In this document: piece by piece, positions 1-31,577 of the stretch
Position numbering within the stretch: position 1 is the first letter of the stretch
How the letters are laid out: every line of letters starts with the position of its first letter
NCBI RefSeq assembly: GCF_044324785.1
Contig: NZ_CP172127.1
Strand: one strand, 5' to 3'
DNA length: 64,000 nucleotides
From: Escherichia coli
GTDB lineage: Bacteria; Pseudomonadota; Gammaproteobacteria; Enterobacterales; Enterobacteriaceae
The notes under the pieces: model-generated
Seen by the model: the letters and a program-made list of their open reading frames with translations, nothing else
Told to the model about the DNA's origin: nothing
Databases searched by the model: none
Made by a program: the position numbers and the translations under genes

Positions 1-199
1 GTGTAAATGGGAGTTTAAAATAGCGAGATGGCTCTTTCACATAAGCAGAGATATTTTCTTTCGGGATAGCGGGTAATACTCCGACTGAGGAAGGCTTATG
101 AATTACTGTATCTGTAGCCGATGCTGTATTTGCCTGGTAAAAACATAGTAACCCCAAGCCAATTATTGCAGCACTTAATCTCAAAAATTTTCTTTCCAT
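1..199 (-). CDS. Partial CDS (N-terminus only; runs off window start): secreted protein with signal peptide, immediately downstream of the BcsA-like gene
   Basis: Reverse strand translates from ATG at 199 as MERKFLRLSAAIIGLGLLCFYQANTASATDTV..., a hydrophobic core followed by an ASA-type cleavage motif; an in-frame ATG also lies at 220. Frame stays open to position 1. Not in the ORF track because it is truncated by the window edge. Confidence 0.4.
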   Translation of the reverse strand, partial: MERKFLRLSAAIIGLGLLCFYQANTASATDTVIHKPSSVGVLPAIPKENISAYVKEPSRYFKLPFT

Positions 200-258
200 T
201 TTAAAAAATTCAACAACCATAATAAATACAAATAATATATTTAATTAGCAATCAGAAA

Positions 259-2379
259 TTAGAACTGACTTTTAGAACTGCCTTTCAGTGTCCGGAGAAT
301 ATAAAAAACCATATTGCAATAACCTTTCAGAGAGATAAAACATATTTCAATAAAACTCTTTAAAATATTGTCTCGTTTAATTTTATCATTCCACTCTTGC
401 CATAGTGAATCACGAGAAAACGTTGCTCTGACATAATTAACATTTTGTTCATGACTCATTGGCATAATCTTCAGACCAATTTTATTATTGTAGGCATGAA
501 CTATTTCTACCGGTATATCACACTTTCCGTTACTATCATCCAGATAAAGAGACAACCGCTGTGTTTTAACAATATTTTTTACGTCGGAGATATTATCAAG
601 GATAACGCCTAATCCTCCTTCGGAAAAATCAAGAACAGAACAAGGATAGCTCCGTCCATCTTCCAGTTGTATAACGCCCTTGAAAGAAACATCAATACGG
701 GGAGAAAAACGCACCTGCTTTTGTTCAATAGAAACAGCCAAAGTTGCGCCAATAATAATTGTATTATAAAACAGCCAAATCAAACAAAAAAAATTCAGGA
801 TGGCGATATGCCCTTGCAAACTATAAACATTAACAATACCTATTATCAGTCCAATTACATTTAAAATGGCAAAAATAAGATAGGGGTAGGAAATTCGCCA
901 GTCAACAAACTTATTTTTTATCAGCCCTCCTTTGGCCGTAACGTTGAAACGCCCTTTTGCTGGTGCAAGTAAAGCTACAAGAGTTGGTAGCGTAATATAC
1001 CAAGCCAGAACCATTTCATAAATCTCATTCCAGAATGAATGTCTGTATTTACCCTGTACTCTTGAATTAGTTAAAATAATAACAAATAAATAAGGTAAAA
1101 CATAAGACATAATATCTGCAACCGATGCTTCGATCAGGTTGACCGAAAAGAAAATAGGACATAACGGTGCGAACAAGAAAATCAGTCGTGGCACACCTGA
1201 TAAAAAATGCATCATGCTGCTGAGATAGCAAAGGCGCTGTGATAATGTCAGCCCCTTGCCCAATAATGGATTGTCAATACGCAAGATTTGAATCATGCCT
1301 CGAGCCCATCGAATCCGTTGTCCAATATGAGCAGACAATGTTTCTGTGGCTAGCCCGGCAGCCAGAGGATAGCGAAGATATGCAGAGCTATAACCTGCAC
1401 GATGCAAGCGTAACGACGTATGCGCATCTTCAGTTACTGTTTCGACTGCAATGCCTCCAACCTCATCCAGAGCAGATCTACGGATGATTGCACATGAACC
1501 ACAAAAAAATGAAGCATTCCATGTATCCGTACCATTCTGGATTAACCCATAAAAAAGGTGTCCTTCATTTGGCTTTTGCCGAAACTGCCCCAAATTTCGC
1601 TCAAAAGGATCGGGGGAAAAAAAATGATGTGGTGTTTGCAACATCGATAATTTTTTATCTGCAATAAACCAGCCCATCGTTTTCTTTAAAAAAGATACCG
1701 AGGGTATATGATCGCAATCGAAAATAGCAACAAATTCGCCATTAGCTATTTTAAGCGCATTATTTATATTTCCGGCCTTAGCATGTTCATGTGTTTCTCT
1801 TGCGACATAGTAAATTCCTGACTCGTTCGCAAATTTCCTGAACTCATCCCTGGCGCCATCATCAAGGATCCAGATATGTAATTTATCCTTTGGCCAGTCT
1901 AAAGCCAACGCACCATAAACTGTATTCTTCACGACTGTAAAAGGTTCGTTATATGTGGGTATTAATATATCTACGATGGGCCATTCTTCTTTATTCTCTG
2001 GTAAAGGTATACTTTCTCTGTTCAGCGGGAAGCAAACCTGAAAGTAACCAAGTAATAAAACAAACCAAGCATACGTTTCAGCAGTTAATAACGTGACTGA
2101 AAATAAGCAGTCTGGAAATTCATTCAGGATGACTGAAGAAGAGTACCGCCACCATAGATATCGGGATGAGATGAGTATTCCAACACCCATTAATATCAGG
2201 GTAATCATCCTTCCCTTGAACAAATTAAGGAAAATGACAGCGATGCAAATAATAATTGAAAATAATATTTGTTGATAAAATCCAAGTGGCTGCTCAACAA
2301 TTGATAAAAAGACAAAACATAGCAATATAGCAACAACCAAAAGGATTTTGTTTAATATTTCTTTATTTTTTAAGATCAT
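259..2379 (-). CDS. Processive family-2 glycosyltransferase, cellulose-synthase (BcsA)-like, with C-terminal PilZ c-di-GMP-binding domain
   Basis: 706 aa with multiple TM segments. Catalytic motifs visible in the translation: IPTYNE, DDG, FDCDH, QTPHHF, FFCGSCAIIRRSAL, TED, QRIRWARG (QxxRW). C-terminal PilZ signature RFSPR...DFSEGG. Gene is visibly AT-rich. Confidence 0.8.
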   Translation of the reverse strand: MILKNKEILNKILLVVAILLCFVFLSIVEQPLGFYQQILFSIIICIAVIFLNLFKGRMITLILMGVGILISSRYLWWRYSSSVILNEFPDCLFSVTLLTAETYAWFVLLLGYFQVCFPLNRESIPLPENKEEWPIVDILIPTYNEPFTVVKNTVYGALALDWPKDKLHIWILDDGARDEFRKFANESGIYYVARETHEHAKAGNINNALKIANGEFVAIFDCDHIPSVSFLKKTMGWFIADKKLSMLQTPHHFFSPDPFERNLGQFRQKPNEGHLFYGLIQNGTDTWNASFFCGSCAIIRRSALDEVGGIAVETVTEDAHTSLRLHRAGYSSAYLRYPLAAGLATETLSAHIGQRIRWARGMIQILRIDNPLLGKGLTLSQRLCYLSSMMHFLSGVPRLIFLFAPLCPIFFSVNLIEASVADIMSYVLPYLFVIILTNSRVQGKYRHSFWNEIYEMVLAWYITLPTLVALLAPAKGRFNVTAKGGLIKNKFVDWRISYPYLIFAILNVIGLIIGIVNVYSLQGHIAILNFFCLIWLFYNTIIIGATLAVSIEQKQVRFSPRIDVSFKGVIQLEDGRSYPCSVLDFSEGGLGVILDNISDVKNIVKTQRLSLYLDDSNGKCDIPVEIVHAYNNKIGLKIMPMSHEQNVNYVRATFSRDSLWQEWNDKIKRDNILKSFIEICFISLKGYCNMVFYILRTLKGSSKSQF

Positions 2380-2463
2380 TATACTTAGCGATTCATTAAC
2401 AATACAGCTTGAATAGTGTGATTTTTATAAACATTGATGACCAATGCCATGCAAATTTAAATA

Positions 2464-3795
2464 TCAACACCACGTTATCTGTGCTCTGCCATTTTGCTTA
2501 CTTTTGTATAACCGTTCATCTGCCAGCAATTTCAACCGTTCAATGTTATTCATGCACTCATCTGTACTGGCAACTCCTATGCTGCAACTACAATTTAACC
2601 CACCGATTGCGAAATGAACAACTCTGTGCAAAATTCTTGATAGTTTATTTTTATCTTTCTCATAATAAATAATAGCAAACTCATCACCGCCAAACCGGTA
2701 TATTTCCCCTTCACGACGGGGTAACTCATCTTTAATAAGGTTAACAAGTTTGATGAGTACTTCATCACCAAACAGATGGCCAAACTTATCATTAATGGTT
2801 TTAAATTTATCCACATCAAATAGACACAGGTAGCCAAAATTCTTGCTCAGCATCTTGATTTCCTTATCAAAACTCCGACGACCAGAAGCCCGAGTTAATG
2901 CATCACAAGTGCCAAAGTCATATATCTCTCGAATTGCATTAATCTCTTCCGTATTAAAGAATAGATTTTCTCCACATAAATCATATTGATGATTCGATAA
3001 TATAGATTCTTTTTCCAATCTACCCTTATTTATAATATTTCGTAGTAATTTAATATAATAAACATACAGTATAACTGCAGATATTGCCGATGCAAAAACG
3101 AATAGCATACATATATAGAGATATTTACTTTTTTTATAGGCAACAATAAACATCATTTCTGGAAGGTAAGAATACGACAGAGTGATAGCTGACATCTCAA
3201 ATACAGCATCATTTATCAAAAAATCATCACCTGTGATTTTCTTTTCATTATCATTAATATCATAAAATGAGATATAGATATCTTCTCGTTCCCCTGACTG
3301 ATTTCTAATCAAAGATAAATAACGTTCAGGATCTACCACTGATATCAAAATTGTTCGTTTGGCAATGGGATGAGCATAATAAACATAGTACTTATCTTTT
3401 AAACCAATAACACCTCTCTCAAATTCGTTCATTACTCGAATAGAGGAAACTATGTCGCCACAAAAATCATCCCCTTTCGTTGTAACTTTGATACATTTAC
3501 CATCGCTAATAATATAAGGACCGAGATCATACAAATATCCAGGATTTTCATAGCCAGCAAAGCTATTGCGTATTTTTTTTACCAATTCTTCTGGGGCAAT
3601 ATCTAGTTCATAAAATATATCATTAGATACTGAGCGGCGATACTCAGAAACATTAGCTATTGCAAGCCCACTATCTACAATAGATACCTTCACCGAATTA
3701 ATGCGGCCCTTAACATAAATGGTGTATAAATAACAAGTTACTACAGCGACGAACAAAAAACAGATTACTGCCGCCTTTTTCTTATATTTGAACAT
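2464..3795 (-). CDS. Membrane-anchored diguanylate cyclase (GGDEF domain) with predicted periplasmic sensor region
   Basis: 443 aa; N-terminal TM, ~190-aa loop, second TM, then a GGDEF domain with an intact RFGGDEF motif. No obvious RxxD I-site immediately upstream of the motif. AT-rich; 4-bp gap to the upstream EAL gene. Confidence 0.8.
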   Translation of the reverse strand: MFKYKKKAAVICFLFVAVVTCYLYTIYVKGRINSVKVSIVDSGLAIANVSEYRRSVSNDIFYELDIAPEELVKKIRNSFAGYENPGYLYDLGPYIISDGKCIKVTTKGDDFCGDIVSSIRVMNEFERGVIGLKDKYYVYYAHPIAKRTILISVVDPERYLSLIRNQSGEREDIYISFYDINDNEKKITGDDFLINDAVFEMSAITLSYSYLPEMMFIVAYKKSKYLYICMLFVFASAISAVILYVYYIKLLRNIINKGRLEKESILSNHQYDLCGENLFFNTEEINAIREIYDFGTCDALTRASGRRSFDKEIKMLSKNFGYLCLFDVDKFKTINDKFGHLFGDEVLIKLVNLIKDELPRREGEIYRFGGDEFAIIYYEKDKNKLSRILHRVVHFAIGGLNCSCSIGVASTDECMNNIERLKLLADERLYKSKQNGRAQITWC

Positions 3796-3799
3796 TGCT

Positions 3800-6148
3800 T
3801 TATTTTCTTTTTTTCGGTTTGCTGTCTATATGCCATTCTGAAAACGGTAGCGGTTTCTGGTATAAGTATCCCTGAACATGAGAGAATCCTAATTTTTGCA
3901 ATTCTCTGGCCTGACTTTCAGTTTCAACACCTTCAGCTATTACCGGCATATTTTCTTCACGAGCAAGGCTGGATATAAAGTACACAATTTTGTTAGTTTC
4001 GTTGAAAATACCAGAGGTAAACTCTGAATCAATTTTAATACTATCAGGTCTTACTTTATAAAGTTTTTTCAGGTCAGCTAATCCACTACCGAAATCATCA
4101 AGAGAAATCTTGATACCGTTTTCTTTTAAAATGTTTATATTATTGTAAAAGCTATCATTTATATCTTTTACTGCTGACTCGGTGATCTCCAGACAGATTT
4201 GTTCAGCATTTACATCAAATGCATTAATTAAAGTAAGAACACGAGTGTGGAAGTCAATTTCATTTAATTGCCATGGAGAAACATTGATATGCAGGAGAAA
4301 ATCGTTAGCAACCTCATATTCACGGCTAAAGGCACCAAATTCGCTAATAGCCGTTTCGAGAATAAAATCACCCAGTTCTTTAATTAATCCTATTTCTTCA
4401 GCAACAGGTACAAAAATTGATGGCGGTATTGCCCCATTTTCGACGGATAACCAGCGGCATAACGCCTCAGCACCGACAACCCTATTATTATCCATATCAA
4501 CAATCGGTTGATATACTAAATAAAGTTCACTACTCAAAATCGCTTTTTTTATATTTCCTGCCACCCAGACCTTTTGATCAAGTTCATGAACTTTGATATC
4601 ATCATAAAACATAAATTCAGATTCTTTATTTTCCCGCATAGCTGTTAATGCCAGTTTCAACTTCCCTTCATAAATCGAAACATTTTCCCCTGAAAAAGTT
4701 TCACAAATGGCAATCTTATGAATATAAATATTTCTTATGCAAAATATATGTTCAGGGAAGTTTAAAACAGATAATCTTTCGATGAACTCTTCGCAGTGCG
4801 TGTGGCACAGCAACAAGTATGTTTCAGTTGAGAATTTTACGATATCACAATATTTTGAATATTTTTGTGAAATCTTCGATTTTATATCATTAACAATTTC
4901 ATAAAATTTCTGACTTCCATATATCGCCTCAACAAACTCTAATCCATAGATGCAAAGCATACCAACTGCCAAATAGGTTTTATTATTAGTTTCAATAACA
5001 GCCTTATTAATATAGAAACAACTTCCTTGTTCATAGGACACAAGATTAAGTAAACGGTCCATACGCTCCTTGTATTTATCACTGATATTATTAATGATTT
5101 TTTTGAGTTCAACAATTTCGCTACTATCATTTTGCACAATATCAATTGTGTCATTGCGATATACTGAGTTAGCTAATTTTTTCAGATGTTCTATTAGTTT
5201 ACTGGATTCTCGTTTAATTTTTTTTGTTATATTTTCAACGATATACCATAATAAACAGAAACAAACCAAGCCACATAAAAACATCAATGTAAAATATTTA
5301 TTGATGTTTGCATCTTCTGCTTTTTGATAGTAAAAGTAATGGAATCTGACATCAGGAAGCCTGGGGAGTGAGATAATATTGTCTGTATAGTTTCCACTAT
5401 TATTACTTATGTTATAACTTCCCGATGACTCACGGACAATAAGATGTAACATTGATTTTTCATTACCTACCATTATCCTTTTATTTTGTTCCATGAATAG
5501 AATATCAGCATCACTACCTAGTTTATTTAAAAAATTACTGAAATATTTTTCATCAAGATCCAGATGCATTAACTTCAGAGCAAATGAATCTTTTTCTTCT
5601 TCGGATGGCCGTAGTGAAAACGAAAAACATTTTTTTCCGGCAATACCATAACAATTATACCATGGTGACCATTTTGAATAAGTCCCTGCCGGTAATTTAT
5701 TCCAGGGGCGTGATTCCGGGTTAAAGTAGTTATCGCTAATATTACCATCGTCCCCAATAAAAGGTTTGCCGGCTTCTGATTTCCCCAGGAATTTTACCTC
5801 ACCATCCTCAGTTCGAATAAAGCTAAGATAGTTTCCATTATTGAGCATTATCCCTACTAAATTAACAGCGTCTATTTTTTTCATGCGATGAAGGACTGCT
5901 CGCTTTATTTCACCTTCATCATTTAACAGATAAATTGCATCTTTTAATGCATCAGCCTCTTTTTCAACTTTAGAAAAAAAATTATTCAAATTGTTATTGA
6001 TGAGTATAAGGTTAATCCGTGAAGAGTTTTCTGCTATTTTTTTATGGAAGTCAATTGCGGTAATAAATGAAAAGACAATATAGACAGTAACAGCTAATAT
6101 AACCGCAGTGTTAAATCTTGAGTTTAATTTTTCGGTAATGCTATACAT
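3800..6148 (-). CDS. Membrane sensor c-di-GMP phosphodiesterase (EAL domain) with large periplasmic region
   Basis: 782 aa; two TM segments flanking a ~260-aa loop. C-terminal EAL domain with conserved YQPIVD, GAEALCRW, EITES, LDDFGSG, IKIDSEF, AEGVETE and QGYLYQKP motifs. First gene of an apparent three- or four-gene minus-strand operon. Confidence 0.8.
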   Translation of the reverse strand: MYSITEKLNSRFNTAVILAVTVYIVFSFITAIDFHKKIAENSSRINLILINNNLNNFFSKVEKEADALKDAIYLLNDEGEIKRAVLHRMKKIDAVNLVGIMLNNGNYLSFIRTEDGEVKFLGKSEAGKPFIGDDGNISDNYFNPESRPWNKLPAGTYSKWSPWYNCYGIAGKKCFSFSLRPSEEEKDSFALKLMHLDLDEKYFSNFLNKLGSDADILFMEQNKRIMVGNEKSMLHLIVRESSGSYNISNNSGNYTDNIISLPRLPDVRFHYFYYQKAEDANINKYFTLMFLCGLVCFCLLWYIVENITKKIKRESSKLIEHLKKLANSVYRNDTIDIVQNDSSEIVELKKIINNISDKYKERMDRLLNLVSYEQGSCFYINKAVIETNNKTYLAVGMLCIYGLEFVEAIYGSQKFYEIVNDIKSKISQKYSKYCDIVKFSTETYLLLCHTHCEEFIERLSVLNFPEHIFCIRNIYIHKIAICETFSGENVSIYEGKLKLALTAMRENKESEFMFYDDIKVHELDQKVWVAGNIKKAILSSELYLVYQPIVDMDNNRVVGAEALCRWLSVENGAIPPSIFVPVAEEIGLIKELGDFILETAISEFGAFSREYEVANDFLLHINVSPWQLNEIDFHTRVLTLINAFDVNAEQICLEITESAVKDINDSFYNNINILKENGIKISLDDFGSGLADLKKLYKVRPDSIKIDSEFTSGIFNETNKIVYFISSLAREENMPVIAEGVETESQARELQKLGFSHVQGYLYQKPLPFSEWHIDSKPKKRK

Positions 6149-7247
6149 ACTGGTGTTCTGACTAAAATGTTATCAATAGCTTTAATATAAGATCGTATAA
6201 AGTTCTGTATATTAGCCGATGTTACCCTCCTCTTTATGACTTTCTTAATTTCATTATCCCCATATAACAAATATGTCATGATGAGAAGATTAATTTTTTC
6301 TTAATTTCCACAAGTGATTATCATGCTTCTTATTTTAACCAGAACAATATTGTTATATGTAACACTCATCTTTGTATCTTTCACCCACGCTACCGCCTTT
6401 CGTTAATCATTCAACGAAATAATTTAGATATGAAAAAATTACCCTGTAACAACACAACTAGCACATCCTGCCGAGTTGTGACATCTACTCTATAATTATC
6501 CAAAAGAGGTATTAGTATCTATTGTCAGTAATCCATTCTGTTTATTTATCTTATTTAAGACATGTGTAATACGACTCTCTTAGCCCAAATATATTAATCA
6601 GTAACTTTAAAGTAAGATTTAGTCAGAAAGTGATCGTGAAAATTTCACTGCCCAGGCTGTAATTTGTCCATCAACCTAACAGATAAATATTTTCAGGAAC
6701 ACACGTTCGATAAAACAATAGATGCAACATTAGAGCACTATTTTATTTTTAAAACAAAAGACTGTGAACTACACCAGGCATGAGAAGATTCTGTCGTGAG
6801 ATGATTTTTTCCAGATTAAAACACTATAAAATATAACTTTTACAGAATATTACGCCAGTAAATCAATATGCCATCTGCATATTCAAACAATAACTGCAAT
6901 CATTCTCAGCAAATTTAACCATAATTAGCAACGTGCAAATTCATTGATGCAGATCAAAAATCCGAGTTTACATTACCAATCTTTGTTGAAAATTTAGCCG
7001 TAAAAATCATGTTATTACTATACGCAAGAGTTTACTCCAGAGCCCAAAATAATAACTTGCAAAATAACCAATAATTAAAACTATCACCATATCTAAAAAT
7101 AAAGGTCTCCGATAACTAAAATTCGTATTATCACGGTAGCGTTGATATTCTTCCATCTCTTAAGAAAAACTTAACTTTTACCCTATCAGGCCTGATCTAA
7201 TTTTAAACTATTTGATATCATAGCCCCGGCGAACCGGGGCATGATGA

Positions 7248-8678
7248 CTATTTTGTATTCGCTTTACGTGCAAGCAGCGGGAATATCAGCCCCAGTCCAA
7301 CGAGGACAAATGGCGTAGTTATGTTCAGTGCCAATTGGAATGTCCACTCTGCAGTGAAGGCTTCCATTTTAGGGAAAATTCCTGTCAGGCAGGCAAAAGC
7401 GGTAAAGGCAAAACACCAAATTCCGACGGTCATTGCCAGCGGCTTATTACGAATAAAGACATATTCCGGCTTATATTTCTGCGCCAGGCGAACAACTGCA
7501 ATAAATGCAACAAATACCCATAAATAACGCAGCGGCATCACTACCGAGTTAAGATTCAACAGCCATTTATAGAGATTGTTCATATCACCAATGCCGAGAG
7601 TCGGCAGCATTATCAGGATCGCCACCAGCACCAGGGTCAGAAAATAGCCATTAACGGGCGTACCAGAAGCGTTGGTACGACATAAACTGGCTGGAATATA
7701 TTTGCTGTCAGCATCGCCTAATAACACTTTAAGCGGCGCATCAATCGAGAATACCAGCGCAGCTACTTGTCCCAGGGTATTCGCAATGGCATAAATCACC
7801 ATTAAAGTATTACCCATGTTGTAATACTCGCCCAGCTTCTGAAAGGCGTAATACTGACCGTTAGTCATTAAGTCATCCGGGATATTACGCGAGTCAAACA
7901 TCATCCCCATCGCCAGTGAGCCCAGAATGGCACAAACCGCAACCATCACCGCCAGACATAACATCCCTTTTGGAAATTCTTTTCCTGGGTTGCGCGTTTG
8001 ATTAACGTAAGGAGAAATCTTCTCTGCTCCGCCAACCGCGAAAACCAGCATTGAAATAGTGGTAATGTAGGTAAAGTCGATATGAGGAATGAACGTTTCC
8101 CAGGTAATGTTTGTGGTCGCAATATGCACTTCAGTAATCGCAGGCGCGGTTACCGCCATCGCCACATACAGGAGCGACATAACAAACATCGCAATCCCTG
8201 CCACAGAACCGACGATTTTCAGCGATTTCATACCGCGTGAAGCAACCCACATAAAGAAGATAAACAGCACCAGCGTTAACCCCTGTAACGCTACGACTGA
8301 ATATTCTTTGATTAGCGAACCGTCGCCTTTCATCGCCCAACCGAGCGCAATCAGTATTGCCTGGGGTTTTTGTGCCAGATAGGGAATATGCACTACCCAG
8401 TAGGTCCACGCGGCGAGGTAAGCCAGTCCGGGTCCCATCGTGTGTTTAATCCAGGTACTGACCCCGCCCTTCCCATCTTTGAAGGTCGAGCCTAACTGAC
8501 CAACAATTAGCGCATAAGGTGTGAAATAGAGCGCAAAGATAAACACCCACGAAAAAACAACCACCAGCCCCTGGTTGGCGTAGTTATTAACAACGTTGCC
8601 AAAACCCCAGACAGTGATAAAAGACATCAGCGCAATGTTGTACCATCGCAGCTGTTTTTCCTGAACATTCCCAGCCAT
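7248..8678 (-). CDS. ycaM: Putative amino-acid/polyamine transporter YcaM
   Basis: The ORF-track frame extends to 8870, but the internal Met at 8678 (MAGNVQEKQLRWYNIALMSF...) gives 476 aa, matching the YcaM length as I recall it. Multi-TM permease. Confidence 0.8.
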   Translation of the reverse strand: MAGNVQEKQLRWYNIALMSFITVWGFGNVVNNYANQGLVVVFSWVFIFALYFTPYALIVGQLGSTFKDGKGGVSTWIKHTMGPGLAYLAAWTYWVVHIPYLAQKPQAILIALGWAMKGDGSLIKEYSVVALQGLTLVLFIFFMWVASRGMKSLKIVGSVAGIAMFVMSLLYVAMAVTAPAITEVHIATTNITWETFIPHIDFTYITTISMLVFAVGGAEKISPYVNQTRNPGKEFPKGMLCLAVMVAVCAILGSLAMGMMFDSRNIPDDLMTNGQYYAFQKLGEYYNMGNTLMVIYAIANTLGQVAALVFSIDAPLKVLLGDADSKYIPASLCRTNASGTPVNGYFLTLVLVAILIMLPTLGIGDMNNLYKWLLNLNSVVMPLRYLWVFVAFIAVVRLAQKYKPEYVFIRNKPLAMTVGIWCFAFTAFACLTGIFPKMEAFTAEWTFQLALNITTPFVLVGLGLIFPLLARKANTK

Positions 8679-8887
8679 AGACAAATCCTTCGCCAAAATT
8701 AAAGGGGCATCTGTAAAACGAGGGATTATGCGCGGCAAATAAGAAGTGCGGAAATAGCGAAATGCAAAATTATAACCTGCTGCACATTTTATTTTGAAAC
8801 GAATAAAATTTGGAAAAAAGCAAGTCAGAGAGAAGAAACAGAAAAGCAGAGTGTGAAACAGTAAGTTCACACTCTGCGTTAATTCAT

Positions 8888-10036
8888 TTACACGTGAGCA
8901 ACGGGTTTCGGCGTATGACCGGCGTTGCGAAGCAGCATCAGCAAATAGATAAACGATACGCTGGCGATCATGATAAACAATAAATTATCGGAGAAATTCT
9001 GCATTAGCATGGCAGTAAATGACGGGCCAAGCAGACTTCCCACAGTATAGCTCAACAGTAAGGCCTGGTTCATCGCCACCAGTTGATGATGTTCAACTTT
9101 CTCGCAAGCCCATGCCATCGCCACCGGATATAGCGTAAAGCCAGCGGCACCGAGGATGAATAACGCTGGGGCCATCGCCGCCTGGCTAAGCATCGCGATA
9201 CTGCCGAGAATGACGACAAAGACCTGAACACGCAACACCAGCAGTCGACCAAACTTATCCGCCAGACGTCCGATCGGCCATTGTCCGAGGATACCCGCAC
9301 TGACCAGTACCGCCATCCAGAAACCAATGCTGGCATTGCTCACCCCTTTGTGATTGAGGTACAGCGGCATCAGGCCATATAGAGATCCCAGCACGATTCC
9401 TGAGATAATGCAGCCATTCACGCCAAGCCGCGCCTGACGGAGTTTTAGCATTGACGTAATTGACGTCGAATCATGGTTTTCAGCCTGCTGATTCAGCACA
9501 CGCGTAAACAACAGCGGTAAGATCCCTGCCAACGTCAAACCTGTAACCCACGGCAATACGCTCATCAGCTCGGTTGAGACTTTGCTGACCAGTAACTGGC
9601 CTAAAAACGTTCCCACGTAATAAACCATCATGTATGCGGCAAGCAAACGCCCACGGTTACGTGACGTCCCACTGCACATCAGCGCGCTCTCAACGACTAC
9701 CCAAATCATGGCACAGCCGACGCCCGCGACAAAACGCCACGCCAACCAGCTCCAGAAACCAATCATCAGGCCAAGGCCGACACAGCCAGCGGCAAAAATG
9801 AAGGAGGCCAGATAATAGCTGCGGTTAAAGCCAATGCGCTTAATGACATACCCTGTCAGCAATGTACCGACCAGGTTGCCGGTAAAATAGGATGAGCTGA
9901 CAACGCCTACCTGCCATGTGGACATGTGTTCCTGGGCGAGCCAAAGCGGCACGAGTGTATTTAACACTGCGATCGCCAGAGTCAACAAAAGCAGGCCAGA
10001 CAGCAAAAGCATGACAGGCCGGGTATACGTGGACAT
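8888..10036 (-). CDS. ycaD: MFS transporter YcaD
   Basis: 382-aa 12-TM protein; sequence and position between ycaM and ycaC match K-12 synteny. Confidence 0.85.
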
Positions 10037-12504: not shown

Positions 12505-14949
12505 TTACACCTTTTCAACCTGAACAAGGTTTGTATGTGACGGATTCCCCTTAGCGAGAGGAGACGGACGTTGAGTGGTCAGTACGTTGATACAACCGCC
12601 CTTATCGACACGTTTTGCATCCGGGTCATACCAGGCACCTTCACCCAGTGCGACCACACCCGGCATCATTCGTGGCGTCACTTTCGCCTCAATATGAACC
12701 TCACCACGGTCGTTAAAGATCCTGACCTTATCGCCGTTGTTGATACCGCGTTTTTGTGCATCAAGCGGGTTGATCCACATTTCCTGACGGCAAGCTGCTT
12801 TCAGCACATCAACGTTGCCGTAAGTTGAGTGAACGCGAGATTTATAGTGGAAGCCAGTAAGCTGCAGCGGATATTGTTTGTTCAGCGGATCCTGATAACT
12901 TTCAAAGCCCGGCGTGTAGATCGGCAGTGGATCGATCACGTCGCCTTCTGGCAATTCCCAGGTAGCGGCAATGTCAGCCAGCGCCTGCGAATAAATCTCA
13001 ATTTTACCCGATGGCGTGGTCAGTGGATTTGCCTGCGGATCTTCACGGAAGGCTTTATAAGCAACGTGATGCCCTTGTGGGTCGCGCTTTTTAAAGATCC
13101 CCTGCTTGCGGAACTCTTCAAACGTTGGCAGTTCAGGAATCGCTTCCCGCGACTGGGCATACAGATGCCGCATCCACTCTTCCTGGGTACGGCCTTCAGT
13201 AAACTGTTGCTCAACGCCAAGACGTTTTGCCAGTTCGCTGGTCATTTCATAGATGGTCTTACATTCAAAGCGCGGTTTAATCACCTGATCGTTGAAAATC
13301 ACGTAAGACATATTCCCGCAGGATGCATCCAGTGCAAAGTCCATCTGTTCGGAAGCGGTGCAGTCAGGTAGCAGGATGTCAGCATATTTCGCCGATGAGG
13401 TCATGTGGCAGTCGATAACCACAATCAGCTCGCACTTCTTATCATCCTGAAGGATTTCATGGGTACGGTTGATTTCAGAATGCTGGTTAATCAGGCAGTT
13501 ACCGGCATAGTTCCAGATCATTTTGATCGGCACATCCAGCTTATCTTTCCCGCGCACACCATCACGCAGCGCCGTCATTTCCGGGCCACGTTCAATGGCA
13601 TCGGTCCACATAAACATAGAAATGCTGGTCTGGATCGGGTTTTCGAGGGTCGGCATACGGACAAACGGTAAGCTGTATGAACCTTCACGCGCGCCGCTGT
13701 TCCCTCCATTAATACCAACGTTACCGGTCAGAATCGCCAGCATCGAGATAGCACGGGTTGCGATTTCACCGTTAGCGTGACGCTGCGGGCCCCATCCCTG
13801 GCTGATAAACGCCGGTTTGGTACTACCGATTTCACGAGCCAATTTGATGATTTTGTCTGCCGGAACACCGGTGATTTGCGAGGCCCATTCCGGCGTTTTA
13901 GCCACGCCATCTGGCCCTTCACCCAGAATATAAGCTTTATAGTGACCATTTTTCGGCGCACTGGCTGGCAGTGTTTTCTCGTCGTAGCCAACGCAATATT
14001 TATCGAGGAATGCCTGATCCACCAGGTTTTCGGTGATCATGACATACGCCAGACCGTTAACCAGTGCGGCATCTGTTCCCGGACGAATAGGGATCCACTC
14101 ATCTTCACGCCCGGCACCGGTGTCGGTATAGCGCGGATCGATGATGATCATGCGAGCATTAGATTTCTGGCGCGCCTGTTCAAGATAGTAAGTCACCCCA
14201 CCGCCACTCATTCGCGTTTCGCCAGGGTTATTACCAAACAGCACTACCAGCTTACTGTTTTCGATATCCGACGGGCTGTTACCATCTGCCCAGCCGCCGT
14301 AGGTATAGTTCAAACCTTCCGCAATTTGCGCGGAAGAGTAGTCACCGTAATGGTTCAGATAACCGCCGCAGCAGTTCATCAGGCGCGCGACCAGGGTATT
14401 TCCCGGCGGCCAGGAGCGGGTCATGGTACCGCCCAGCGTACCGGTGCCATAGTTCAGATAGATAGACTCGTTGCCGTACTCTTTGATAAGGCGCTGCATA
14501 TTGGTCGCGATGATGTCGTAGGCTTCTTCCCAGCTAATGCGCTCGAATTTGCCTTCACCGCGCGCCCCGACTCGTTTCATCGGATATTTCAGGCGGTCCG
14601 GATTGTAGACACGGCGACGCATGGAACGACCACGCAGACAGGCGCGCACCTGGTGCAGGCCGTCATAGTTGTCATCGCCAGTATTATCCGTTTCAACATA
14701 TTTGATTTCACCGTCCACGACGTGCATACGTAGCGGGCAGCGACTACCACAGTTAACTGTACAGGCGCTCCAGATAACCTTTTCGTCTGATTTTGTTGGA
14801 ATGGCGCTATCGACAGCGTGCGCAATCCGACTAAAAGGTAATGTTAATGCGCTGCTGGCCATTGCCAGGCCGCCGATCGCTGTCGTTTTTACCAAACCAC
14901 GGCGACTCACCTCAGCAGCCAATACCGCATCAGGGATTTTCGTTTTCAT
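12505..14949 (-). CDS. dmsA: DMSO reductase catalytic subunit DmsA (molybdopterin oxidoreductase)
   Basis: 814 aa; twin-arginine signal (SRRGLVKTTAIGGLA); molybdopterin oxidoreductase fold. Confidence 0.9.
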   Translation of the reverse strand: MKTKIPDAVLAAEVSRRGLVKTTAIGGLAMASSALTLPFSRIAHAVDSAIPTKSDEKVIWSACTVNCGSRCPLRMHVVDGEIKYVETDNTGDDNYDGLHQVRACLRGRSMRRRVYNPDRLKYPMKRVGARGEGKFERISWEEAYDIIATNMQRLIKEYGNESIYLNYGTGTLGGTMTRSWPPGNTLVARLMNCCGGYLNHYGDYSSAQIAEGLNYTYGGWADGNSPSDIENSKLVVLFGNNPGETRMSGGGVTYYLEQARQKSNARMIIIDPRYTDTGAGREDEWIPIRPGTDAALVNGLAYVMITENLVDQAFLDKYCVGYDEKTLPASAPKNGHYKAYILGEGPDGVAKTPEWASQITGVPADKIIKLAREIGSTKPAFISQGWGPQRHANGEIATRAISMLAILTGNVGINGGNSGAREGSYSLPFVRMPTLENPIQTSISMFMWTDAIERGPEMTALRDGVRGKDKLDVPIKMIWNYAGNCLINQHSEINRTHEILQDDKKCELIVVIDCHMTSSAKYADILLPDCTASEQMDFALDASCGNMSYVIFNDQVIKPRFECKTIYEMTSELAKRLGVEQQFTEGRTQEEWMRHLYAQSREAIPELPTFEEFRKQGIFKKRDPQGHHVAYKAFREDPQANPLTTPSGKIEIYSQALADIAATWELPEGDVIDPLPIYTPGFESYQDPLNKQYPLQLTGFHYKSRVHSTYGNVDVLKAACRQEMWINPLDAQKRGINNGDKVRIFNDRGEVHIEAKVTPRMMPGVVALGEGAWYDPDAKRVDKGGCINVLTTQRPSPLAKGNPSHTNLVQVEKV

Positions 14950-15141
14950 AATGGCTCACTCAAGCTTGCTCACGATTGATTCCAGTAACAAACCGTATTG
15001 TGTAATTATTTCTATAGCAGGTCGCTATATAGGCTTGTATACATCGAATAATTTGAAAATCAAAGAGATAGGTAGATTTTCACTCGAAAGTAGTATTACG
15101 TGTAAGTGAGGAGTAATTATTGTTCGGTATCAAAGGGAGAC

Positions 15142-15167
15142 AAAAAAAGCGCCCGCAGGCGCTTTTT
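15142..15167 (-). terminator. Rho-independent terminator downstream of serS
   Basis: caaaaaaagcgcccgcaggcgcttttt: GC-rich stem with an A-run on one side and a T-run on the other; sits between the serS stop and the dmsA upstream region. Confidence 0.6.
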
Positions 15168-15187
15168 AGATTCAGAAAAATTGGGTA

Positions 15188-16501
<1,314 letters not shown>

Positions 16502-18666: not shown

Positions 18667-19421
<755 letters not shown>

Positions 19422-19525
19422 ATCAGCATACTTGTCCTTAGCCTTCTGCAGTGACAGCTGGTAGTACAGCGTGCTTCTGGCCAGCCCTGCAGCCTTTAAC
19501 AGGTCAGACTGGCAGTGTCCGCACC

Positions 19526-20056
19526 TCAGGCTCCGGATGACTTTCGTTTTTTCTCCAGCTCCTGGCGCTTTTTTTCCAGGAGATGCTCCTGCATGGCTTT
19601 CAGATATGCATTTTCTGCGCGAAGATAACGCAGCTCATTCTTCATCTCTTCCGGCGTCATGTTTGCCTCGTTTTCATGGGTATCATCAGAACGGGTCATG
19701 CTTTTCTCCTTCCTGCGCCTGATAAAGGCCTCATTACCAGATTTGCGGTAGCCTTTTATCCAGTTTTTAACCGTGTTGTGGCTGGGAATGTTAAACCGGG
19801 CAGCTACCCGGGGTAGAGACTCAGAATGCCCGAGAGCATAAAGAACCACGCAAAGTTTATCTTCAGGAGAATAGCTACGCTTGTGTCTGCAATCCAGTGC
19901 CCGAGGACCGTGAAGAAGAAAAAGATTAATCCAGTGTGAGAGGCTGGTGTGAGAAAGTTGAAAGAGTTTTGCCGTAGAAATGATGCCTGCATGACCAGCC
20001 AGGTAATGATTTACAGCGGCAAGTTTTACTTCAAATGAATGTTTCATAAACTGCAC
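19526..20056 (-). CDS. IS3-family transposase OrfA (HTH DNA-binding)
   Basis: 176 aa with an HTH region and a C-terminal leucine-zipper-like coiled coil (ELRYLRAENAYLKAMQEHL). Confidence 0.75.
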   Translation of the reverse strand: MQFMKHSFEVKLAAVNHYLAGHAGIISTAKLFQLSHTSLSHWINLFLLHGPRALDCRHKRSYSPEDKLCVVLYALGHSESLPRVAARFNIPSHNTVKNWIKGYRKSGNEAFIRRRKEKSMTRSDDTHENEANMTPEEMKNELRYLRAENAYLKAMQEHLLEKKRQELEKKRKSSGA

Positions 20057-20102
20057 CTTCAGATGTCAGATTATGTCCAACATTTGGGGTGCAGTTCATA
20101 CC

Positions 20103-31489: not shown

Positions 31490-31577
31490 GGTGAGGTGTC
31501 CGAGTGGCTGAAGGAGCACGCCTGGAAAGTGTGTATACGGCAACGTATCGGGGGTTCGAATCCCCCCCTCACCGCCA
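31490..31577 (+). tRNA. serW: tRNA-Ser (anticodon GGA)
   Basis: 88-nt sequence GGTGAGGTGTCCGAGTGGCTGAAGGAGCACGCCTGGAAAGTG...GGTTCGAATCCCCCCCTCACCGCCA with a long variable arm and an encoded CCA; adjacent to infA as serW is in K-12. Confidence 0.95.

Follow-up and report, generated by a model that had tools for sequence, protein, structure and literature searches.

The window, the whole stretch of 64,000 nucleotides of Escherichia coli DNA that was analysed, begins with an AT-rich gene cluster, followed to the right by a spacer and the core gene ycaM (Table 1). The complete cluster includes five genes, in the order pdeI-like, dgcI-like, bcsA-like, bcsB-like and bcsC-like, of which the window holds the three promoter-proximal ones and part of bcsB. 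Window position 199 marks the start of bcsB, and strain N3 shows bcsC immediately past the window edge. The window was 99.5–99.9% identical to N3 only as far as tRNA-Ser; beyond that point the island differs and the window carries an additional IS element. All genes of the cluster are on one strand, with gaps of 4 nt between the phosphodiesterase and cyclase genes, 84 nt between the cyclase gene and bcsA, and 59 nt between bcsA and bcsB, and a promoter and terminator scan detected no terminator-like hairpin in the intergenic gaps. The three complete ORFs were found where the first-pass annotation had placed them, and its description of an AT-rich minus-strand stretch agrees with the GC content, 0.30–0.38 over positions 1–7000 versus approximately 0.50 to the right.

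Table 1. Features at the left end of the window.
Feature	Coordinates	Strand	Description
Phosphodiesterase gene	3800..6148	(-)	PdeI/YliE-like, predicted c-di-GMP phosphodiesterase, 782 aa, intact ORF
Cyclase gene	2464..3795	(-)	DgcI/YliF-like, predicted diguanylate cyclase, 443 aa, intact ORF
bcsA-like synthase gene	259..2379	(-)	Predicted cellulose synthase catalytic subunit, 706 aa, intact ORF
bcsB-like gene, 5' end	1..199	(-)	ORF 2-199, first 66 codons; signal peptide MERKFLRLSAAIIGLGLLCFYQANTASA; gene runs off the window
Spacer	6149..7247		1.1 kb, AT-rich (31.7% GC), non-coding; from ycaM stop codon to phosphodiesterase start
ycaM	7248..8678	(-)	Core gene, right-hand boundary of the inserted segment; ORF call and K-12 homology

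Pfam searches of the synthase identified a GT2 domain (1e-23), Cellulose_synt and a PilZ domain (PF07238, E = 5.7e-11, aa 555–651), giving a layout of GT2 domain, transmembrane channel region and C-terminal PilZ. The catalytic motifs were intact, including DDG (172–175), DCD (221–223), FFCGS (291–295), TED (316–318) and QRIRW (354–358), and so was the gating loop FNVTAK (478–483; FxVTxK). Also both c-di-GMP-binding motifs of the PilZ domain were present, RFSPR (557–561; RxxxR) and DFSEGG (584–589; DxSxxG). The protein exceeded two NCBIfam equivalog cut-offs for BcsA, with 1014.1 bits against 992 in NF008558 and 843.3 against 699.1 in TIGR03030. It was 53% identical to K-12 BcsA over 690 aa, the alignment beginning at K-12 residue 150, and it lacks the approximately 150-aa N-terminal extension of core BcsA. 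The difference in length, 706 versus 872 aa in K-12, was 166 aa, close to the shortening of about 170 aa estimated earlier. The match to PDB 7lby had an E-value of 3e-260, with 53% identity to the E. coli BcsA of known structure, and the GT2 core was 41–44% identical to glycosyltransferases of rhizobial plasmids. The claim of a BcsA-like synthase with a PilZ domain was borne out by the domains, cut-offs and motifs, and the possibility that the protein lacks a PilZ fold, raised in the first-pass annotation, is contradicted by the detected domain and its intact binding motifs. The synthase is accordingly predicted to be a BcsA-type processive GT2 enzyme with PilZ.

Full-length bcsB and bcsC were found downstream of the synthase gene in strains N3, 06-00048, MS 21-1 and E69. 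The signal-peptide protein noticed at the window edge is the N-terminal 66 aa of a protein homologous to BcsB, and when the locus was followed leftward in N3 the secreted protein was identified as BcsB, with the export component BcsC after it. The BcsB-like protein, 766 aa in the near-identical N3, was 65% identical to K-12 BcsB and reached 1168 bits against the cut-off of 922 in NCBIfam NF008325 (BcsB). Also the BcsC-like protein exceeded its NCBIfam equivalog cut-off. The earlier statement that no bcsB, bcsZ or bcsC neighbours were visible held for bcsZ, but bcsB begins inside the window and bcsC is just outside it. Neither bcsZ nor bcsQ, bcsR or bcsEFG was found within the five-gene cluster. 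The accessory bcsC is a mosaic with 60 and 97% identity to core K-12 BcsC. An assembly artefact in a single genome was ruled out as the source of this chimeric gene, the same breakpoints being present in four independent assemblies.

The cyclase included a periplasmic GAPES2 domain between two transmembrane segments (aa 23–229, 2e-39) and a GGDEF domain after them (aa 297–438, 2e-24; Pfam). Its active site was intact (GGDEF at 369–373, and FDVDKFKTIND), and the sequence preceding GGDEF was RREGEIYRF, with no RxxD I-site. The phosphodiesterase included CHASE9 (aa 35–150, 6e-39) and EAL (aa 533–766, 2e-64) domains in Pfam, arranged as a transmembrane segment, a periplasmic CHASE9-containing domain, a second transmembrane segment, a long linker and EAL, with hydrophobic segments at 14–32 and 286–304. 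Its catalytic motifs EALCR (561–565), DDFGSG (684–689) and EGVE (739–742) were present, and the signature was completed by YQP, the N in HINVS, EITE, KID and QGY. For the linker a Pfam search at E ≤ 10 gave no GGDEF domain; a recent preprint calls this region a degenerate GGDEF (10.1101/2025.05.09.653004). These domains and full catalytic signatures uphold the earlier description of an intact EAL phosphodiesterase and an intact GGDEF cyclase, both in the membrane.

The closest K-12 counterparts of the two signalling genes are pdeI (yliE) and dgcI (yliF). The phosphodiesterase was 39% identical to PdeI and the cyclase 42% identical to DgcI, both over the full length, and the pairs share gene order, lengths (782/782 and 443/442 aa), domain architecture, intact EAL and GGDEF and the missing I-site, which has been noted also for YliF (PMC3484386). 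They differ in their surroundings, K-12 pdeI–dgcI adjoining gsiABCD and rimO in a neighbourhood free of polysaccharide genes, and in GC content, 42–44% in K-12 versus 33% in the accessory pair. DgcI, the closest cyclase paralogue, is barely expressed in K-12 (PMC5635695). The genes of the window are not ordinary core GGDEF and EAL paralogues present at this position in most E. coli, the alternative that the first-pass annotation had left standing, yet the pair is paralogous to pdeI–dgcI. The names dgcY and pdeY from the Hengge-lab census were considered for the cyclase and phosphodiesterase and rejected, PdeY being SfaY, an unrelated EAL protein of a fimbrial cluster.

The spacer upstream of the phosphodiesterase gene is presumed to be the promoter or regulatory region of the operon. 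It included no ORF of at least 60 aa and no Rfam family above threshold, and a search of positions 1–7400 at E ≤ 1 gave only three sub-threshold chance matches. A promoter search of the 1.1 kb gave nothing convincing, promoter-like sites being as frequent as in shuffled sequences. Neither this spacer nor the one between pflA and bcsC contained remnants of ycaN or ycaK, and neither resembled the plasmid cluster or the sequence upstream of pdeI. Identity between alleles in the spacer was 72–95%, below that of the genes.

In the carriers the cluster replaces ycaN–ycaK, which K-12 has at this position, as the first-pass annotation had stated. The junctions are exactly at the stop codons of ycaM and pflA, and K-12 homology (97.6%) resumes exactly at the former. 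Comparison with other E. coli showed that the locus is present in 9 of the 5,426 complete genomes and absent from the remaining 5,417. All nine full-length E. coli matches were chromosomal and at a single site, and the core bcs locus was retained in each of the nine carriers, all of which have two places for bcsC; in N3 the core locus is intact and separate from the cluster. The identical synthase sequence was present on 214 contigs, and 414 member sequences make up its 90% cluster. Among 5.8 billion proteins, the clusters at least 73% identical to the synthase carried only the names E. coli, E. ruysiae and E. marmotae, and the next matches were core BcsA at 51–56%. A low-GC donor genus (e.g. 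Morganellaceae) was sought, and no relatives were found between the Escherichia-only classes (at least 73%) and core BcsA. The species-representative genomes included a single match, an Escherichia.

The four sequenced alleles (N3, 06-00048, MS 21-1 and E69) had the same five-gene arrangement at one site and all five ORFs intact, and were 5–17% apart in DNA. The cluster of E. coli 06-00048 was 99.3% identical to that of E69, a divergent Escherichia, while the flanks were only 85–89% identical, and the cluster has therefore been swapped as a cassette between Escherichia lineages. Its spread among them is proposed to have relied on homologous recombination between conserved flanking sequences and not on a mobile element. 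The horizontal acquisition suggested earlier from composition finds support in the rarity of the locus and in these exchanged alleles. Across the five genes dN/dS was 0.05–0.25, with 0.018 in the GT2 core, which indicates purifying selection on the cluster genes. Between alleles dS reached approximately 0.55–0.74 with dN/dS of 0.07–0.14, and together with the intact ORFs this requires that function has been under selection for a long time in some part of the genus.

The locus was compared with three known kinds of bcs cluster. It matches the bcs3 type (Hosseinpourlamardi et al., 2025, 10.1101/2025.05.09.653004) as judged from shared properties and from a 90%-identical E. marmotae cluster, which fits the E. 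marmotae BcsA3 of the preprint, rather than from comparison with the reference proteins themselves, WP_309491259.1 of E. coli MOD1-EC7261 and WP_000576412.1 of E. marmotae NCTC8196. According to the preprint, bcs3 is a chromosomal bcsABC-only cluster away from the core bcs locus, with adjacent genes for TM-GAPES2-TM-GGDEF (YliF-like) and CHASE9-...-EAL (YliE-like) proteins, and BcsA3, like the window synthase, has the GT2 and PilZ motifs of BcsA1 without its C-terminal tail and its N-terminus of approximately 150 aa. Global identity to core BcsA was approximately 42% (365/872) for the window synthase, and the preprint gives approximately 41% for BcsA3 and 43% for BcsA2. The identities of the cyclase to DgcI and the phosphodiesterase to PdeI can be set beside 32–41 and 28–37%, respectively, for the variants of the preprint. 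The bcs3 class is restricted to Escherichia, as are the clusters at least 73% identical to the window synthase. The closest synthase outside its own class was that of the plasmid bcs2 clusters (BcsA2, e.g. p13QT4), 701 aa, which are also bcsABC-only. With only 72–74% amino acid identity, and a chromosomal site where bcs2 resides between IS elements on large plasmids, the window locus does not belong to this class. Moreover, the BcsB of bcs2 was only 60% identical, its bcsC was full-length and 99.7% identical to core K-12 BcsC, and in p13QT4 bcsB is separated from bcsC by a group II intron and no YliE/YliF homologue is adjacent.

Nor is the cluster a core type IIa system (bcsRQABZC–bcsEFG, E. 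coli/Salmonella). It resembles this system in BcsA (53%), BcsB (65%), the mosaic BcsC and the PilZ motifs, but is without the BcsA N-terminal domain, bcsR, bcsQ, bcsZ, bcsE, bcsF and bcsG, and, unlike the core system, has a cyclase and a phosphodiesterase of its own in the operon. The core locus adjoins pdeK and dppF, whereas the AT-rich accessory cluster is between pflA and ycaM. Three of the missing genes, bcsQ, bcsR and bcsZ, are important to the core system of E. coli.

The sequence evidence for a second cellulose synthase cluster is solid. The locus is probably a five-gene accessory operon for cellulose synthesis with its own c-di-GMP cyclase and phosphodiesterase, which replaces ycaN–ycaK in a few Escherichia lineages. 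We infer that the five genes are co-transcribed, that the enzymes are active, that the polymer is cellulose and that the signalling is dedicated and local. The self-contained module from c-di-GMP to polysaccharide claimed in the first-pass annotation is supported, at the level of sequence, by the PilZ synthase, the complete catalytic signatures and the tight spacing on one strand. Modelled on the well-studied BcsA–BcsB system, the membrane GAPES2-GGDEF cyclase would make c-di-GMP and the CHASE9-EAL phosphodiesterase would degrade it, each governed by a periplasmic signal. The c-di-GMP would bind the synthase at its PilZ domain (RxxxR, DxSxxG) and release the gating loop (FxVTxK). The GT2 domain could then polymerise UDP-glucose to beta-1,4-glucan, extruded via the membrane channel of the synthase itself, BcsB, with its C-terminal helix anchor, would aid catalysis and guide the chain across the periplasm, and BcsC would export the glucan through the outer membrane. 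Since the synthase is without the N-terminal extension and the six bcs genes listed above are missing, the cluster appears to be a minimal bcsABC system, which may either be self-sufficient or borrow accessory proteins from the core bcs locus kept in every carrier.

It is unlikely, although it deserves some weight, that the GGDEF and EAL genes serve the global c-di-GMP pool or other targets and are hitch-hikers with the bcs genes. K-12 pdeI–dgcI is far from any bcs gene, and the examined plasmid bcs2 cluster (p13QT4) has no such neighbours, so the link between synthase and signalling is not obligatory. Deletion of yliF in CFT073 altered adherence, and an unrelated cyclase complemented it (PMC3484386). 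Against such a role, the five-gene arrangement was kept in all four diverged alleles, with gaps of only 4 nt within the pair and 84 nt to bcsA, and every gene of the cluster is under purifying selection. The association with YliE/YliF genes also recurs, according to the preprint, on plasmids as well as in the bcs2 and bcs3 clusters of chromosomes, and a functional link of the signalling genes to the synthase is already proposed there for bcs3 (10.1101/2025.05.09.653004).

A bolder form of the preferred reading, an accessory cellulose operon with its own signalling genes, is that of a locally wired sensor-to-synthase unit producing an unmodified or distinct glucan on a CHASE9/GAPES2 periplasmic cue, with bcsC kept interchangeable with the core machinery by recurrent gene conversion. 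We regard this as doubtful. If true, it would reveal control of a BcsA-type synthase as the ancestral output of the PdeI/DgcI family, and the gene conversion in bcsC would mean that the two synthases share outer-membrane and periplasmic parts physically or functionally.

It is quite improbable that the synthase makes a different matrix polymer, either a non-cellulose glucan (e.g. mixed-linkage beta-1,3/1,4) or a chemically distinct, unmodified cellulose. The identity to core BcsA of only 53%, the missing N-terminal domain, the similarity of the GT2 core to the rhizobial plasmid enzymes and a cluster without bcsZ and the phosphoethanolamine transferase gene bcsG would be compatible with such a product, but both BcsA equivalog cut-offs were exceeded, FFCGS, TED, QxxRW, FxVTxK and PilZ are all there, and the BcsB and BcsC partners pass cut-offs of their own. 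The mixed-linkage synthase BgsA is not known to carry a PilZ domain or to pair with a BcsB, which counts further against a mixed-linkage product. Unmodified cellulose is quite possible as a variant of the main explanation. Very unlikely, too, is a silent, cryptic passenger, silenced for instance as AT-rich foreign DNA and without phenotype in its present hosts: the very low GC content (30–38%) makes silencing under laboratory conditions plausible, and the presence in only 9 of 5,426 E. coli genomes, the want of a strong promoter match and the conclusion of the preprint that a second bcs operon is not established in the population (10.1101/2025.05.09.653004) point the same way, but five ORFs have stayed intact in four alleles at the dS and dN/dS given above, and the exact synthase is found on 214 contigs and in a 90% cluster of 414 members.

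A rare, horizontally exchanged second bcs cluster is thus real and was rightly read in the first-pass annotation, and its kind is already known from the 2025 preprint. Current understanding is unchanged, because both the architecture and the hypothesis were given there (10.1101/2025.05.09.653004). Its experiments concern the plasmid bcs4 cluster only, and the text consulted does not mention the insertion between pflA and ycaM, several diverged alleles, exchange between species or a mosaic bcsC. No experiment on the accessory chromosomal class was found in the literature searched.

Cellulose is a main component of the E. coli biofilm matrix, and the way c-di-GMP controls it serves as a model of local second-messenger signalling. 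A minimal second synthase equipped with its own cyclase and phosphodiesterase would offer a compact natural system in which to study dedicated signalling, and the locus gives a first contextual clue to a possible target of the poorly understood core PdeI/DgcI pair. The alleles further show that Escherichia species exchange matrix-polysaccharide genes as allelic cassettes, at one fixed site on the chromosome and with no mobile-element genes.

The stretch carries, next to ycaM, part of an accessory cellulose-synthase locus of a class that the literature already describes, and RefSeq already annotates its genes as bcsA, bcsB and bcsC. The six-frame ORF list placed three long minus-strand ORFs where the first-pass annotation had put them, and Pfam upheld its reading of them as an EAL phosphodiesterase, a GGDEF cyclase and a BcsA-like synthase with PilZ domain. 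The described AT-richness was also evident (GC 0.30-0.38 over window positions 1-7000, about 0.50 directly to the right), and K-12 MG1655 has ycaN and ycaK between ycaM and pflA, in line with the first-pass annotation. The supposed secreted protein at the window edge does start with a typical signal peptide, but given the locus order in strain N3, with bcsB at the edge, it is the N-terminus of BcsB. Likewise, the reported lack of bcsB, bcsZ and bcsC neighbours held only for bcsZ, since bcsB and bcsC both lie just off the window.

Features of the accessory cellulose-synthase locus, related loci and the rest of the window
Feature	Sequence	Position	Strand	Remarks
Short ORF, BcsB N-terminus	window	2-199	minus	signal peptide
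Synthase, 706 aa	window	259-2379	minus	six-frame ORF list; Pfam GT2/Cellulose_synt + C-terminal PilZ
Cyclase, 443 aa	window	2464-3795	minus	six-frame ORF list; Pfam GAPES2 + GGDEF
Phosphodiesterase, 782 aa	window	3800-6148	minus	six-frame ORF list; Pfam CHASE9 + EAL
Cyclase gene, 446 aa	L001 (N3)	14464-15804
Accessory bcsC	L001 (N3)	6679-9786		just left of window position 1
Accessory bcsC	L006	3679-6786
Accessory bcsC	L007 (MS 21-1)	3687-6794
Accessory bcsC	L008	14594-17701
pflA	L007 (MS 21-1)	2800-3540
bcs2 cluster	L011 (plasmid p13QT4)	9962-20883
1.4-kb insertion between lolA and ftsK	window	18667-20098		ORFs on minus strand
tRNA-Ser(GGA) gene	window	31490-31577		end of N3 collinearity
Genomic island, part tested	window	31400-56000		100% identical to E. 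coli SMS-3-5 and others

In a megablast of window positions 1-7300, only nine of 5,426 complete E. coli genomes had the full locus, always chromosomal and adjoining ycaM, at identities of 99.9% (N3, n=1), 94% (06-00048, n=1) and 83% (n=7). The match length of 7,309 versus 7,300 bases is due to a 9-bp (three-codon) in-frame indel between the cyclase genes of N3 and the window. The order in N3 is pflA / bcsC bcsB bcsA GGDEF EAL / ycaM with the five cluster genes on one strand, and the arrangement is repeated in 06-00048 and MS 21-1; the cluster includes no bcsZ, bcsQ, bcsR or bcsEFG. Homology to K-12 breaks off precisely at two stop codons, those of ycaM and pflA, and thus a 12.7-kb segment, containing neither ycaN/ycaK remnants nor mobile-element genes, replaces the 1.7-kb ycaN-ycaK segment. 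Every one of the nine carriers has two sites that match the accessory bcsC, and the core bcsRQABZC-bcsEFG locus of N3 is intact at its usual site; therefore the carriers have two cellulose-synthase systems.

The gene gaps in the window sequence (4, 84 and 59 nt) include no terminator-like hairpin, and this spacing is consistent with a single operon, though short of proof. The spacer 5' of the phosphodiesterase gene is 1.1 kb long with 31.7% GC, and no ORF of at least 60 aa, Rfam family above threshold or outstanding promoter match was found in it.

The synthase aligned with K-12 BcsA from residue 150 of the latter onward (53% identity over 690 residues) and with the solved E. coli BcsA structure 7lby (E=3e-260); being 166 aa shorter than K-12 BcsA, it fits the earlier estimate of about 170. 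It exceeded both NCBIfam BcsA equivalog cut-offs (1014 vs 992 and 843 vs 699 bits), and the homologues of BcsB and BcsC encoded in N3 likewise scored above theirs. All catalytic-core motifs (DDG, DCD, FFCGS, TED, QRIRW), the gating-loop motif FNVTAK and the PilZ motifs RFSPR and DFSEGG were found. A non-cellulose or unmodified glucan as product is a less well supported reading.

The phosphodiesterase aligned end to end with K-12 PdeI/YliE (both 782 aa, 39% identity) and the cyclase with DgcI/YliF (442 aa, 42%), and in the K-12 pdeI-dgcI pair, too, the cyclase gene comes a few bases after the phosphodiesterase gene. The two signalling genes are therefore diverged paralogues of pdeI-dgcI, distinct from the core copies. 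Both the signature residues of the EAL domain and the active site of the GGDEF domain are intact, and the cyclase sequence has no RxxD inhibition site, as is also the case with YliF (PMC3484386). That the signalling genes are not dedicated to the synthase is again less well supported; a Römling-group preprint of 2025 reports YliF-like GGDEF and YliE-like EAL genes directly next to chromosomal bcs2 and bcs3 clusters, and takes this co-localisation to mean that a functional link is probable (10.1101/2025.05.09.653004). The first-pass annotation had proposed the same signalling-to-polysaccharide circuit, a reading that the sequence evidence bears out.

None of the five ORFs is disrupted in any of four alleles (N3, 06-00048, MS 21-1 and E69). 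Comparison of the N3 and MS 21-1 alleles gave dS of 0.55-0.74 and dN/dS of 0.07-0.14, with 0.018 in the GT2 core, a pattern of purifying selection and not of decay. The cluster as a silent passenger is less well supported.

How BcsA-BcsB works is known from crystal structures of the Cereibacter complex, both bound to c-di-GMP and free of it, and from E. coli cryo-EM structures, and the best-supported model leans on this knowledge at each step. The cyclase and the phosphodiesterase would each respond through a periplasmic sensor domain; c-di-GMP made by the former would bind the PilZ domain and release the gating loop, UDP-glucose would be polymerised and the chain translocated through the synthase, BcsB and BcsC would carry it across the periplasm and outer membrane, and the phosphodiesterase would turn the system off. 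Since it lacks the N-terminal domain of core BcsA as well as bcsRQ and bcsEFG, the system probably either works by itself as a minimal one or relies on core accessory proteins.

Among 5.8 billion proteins, only three clusters were close to the synthase: its own (414 member sequences from E. coli and E. ruysiae, one E. ruysiae protein being 97.7% identical to the window allele), an E. marmotae cluster (90%) and a plasmid BcsA2 cluster (72-74%). Beyond these, identity dropped abruptly to 51-56%, the core BcsA of all Enterobacteriaceae, and so the search points to no candidate for the ultimate donor. A one-genome-per-species scan added a single locus at the same site, in "E. coli" E69; the core genes around it share no more than 85-92% identity with those of E. 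coli. Segment by segment, the clusters of 06-00048 and E69 are 99.3% identical while ycaD, ycaC and dmsC are 85-89% identical; the clusters of N3 and MS 21-1 are 83-87% identical, yet ycaD is 98.4%. It follows that the cluster passes from one Escherichia lineage to another as an allelic cassette, presumably when the conserved flanks recombine. Horizontal acquisition, earlier suggested from composition, is thus confirmed through allele exchange, a route other than AT-richness alone suggests. In MS 21-1-type carriers, pflA is only 92.6% identical to that of N3 in DNA (protein 100%), with ycaD on the opposite side at 98.4%; on the pflA side, therefore, the imported segment probably reached across this gene as well.

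The accessory bcsC has a mosaic structure: identity to core bcsC is about 70% over the 5' 550 nt, 405 contiguous nt of the core gene are lacking, and the 3' 2,556 nt match the core bcsC of K-12 at 88-96%; the breakpoints are identical in all four alleles. The 3' part in N3 includes stretches that share 99-100% identity with the core bcsC of N3 itself, so that the two copies resemble each other more than either resembles K-12, an indication of intragenomic gene conversion. The mosaic was not found in the text of the preprint (10.1101/2025.05.09.653004). The accessory bcsC query also matched 127 plasmid places. In the bcs2 cluster of p13QT4, bcsA and bcsB are diverged (74% identity to the window synthase, and 60% for bcsB), whereas bcsC is full-length and shares 99.7% identity with core K-12 BcsC. 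The bcsB and bcsC genes are separated by a reverse transcriptase gene of a group II intron, and no YliE/YliF homologue adjoins the cluster.

Elsewhere, the insertion between lolA and ftsK, not present in N3, has two overlapping ORFs of 176 and 240 aa, as is typical of transposase pairs in the IS3 family. The SMS-3-5-type island includes genes for an Ag43/Cah autotransporter, glycosyltransferases, a type I restriction-modification system and an ISL3 transposase, and GC is 36-46% across much of 44-64 kb. SMS-3-5 had no bcs cluster in the megablast search of complete genomes.

The preprint describes accessory synthases BcsA2, BcsA3 and BcsA4 in E. coli, which retain all motifs of BcsA1 without its first 150 aa or its C-terminal tail, with BcsA2 and BcsA3 confined to Escherichia and bcsA3 found in chromosomal bcsABC clusters; only a plasmid bcs4 cluster was tested experimentally (10.1101/2025.05.09.653004). 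The window locus agrees with the bcs3 class in every property tested, the assignment being by shared properties and not by identity to a reference accession, and no experiments on this chromosomal class were found in the literature searched. What is added to that description is incremental: the precise site of insertion, the existence of several diverged alleles that are exchanged between species, the finding that all five genes are under purifying selection, and a mosaic bcsC homogenised with the core gene.
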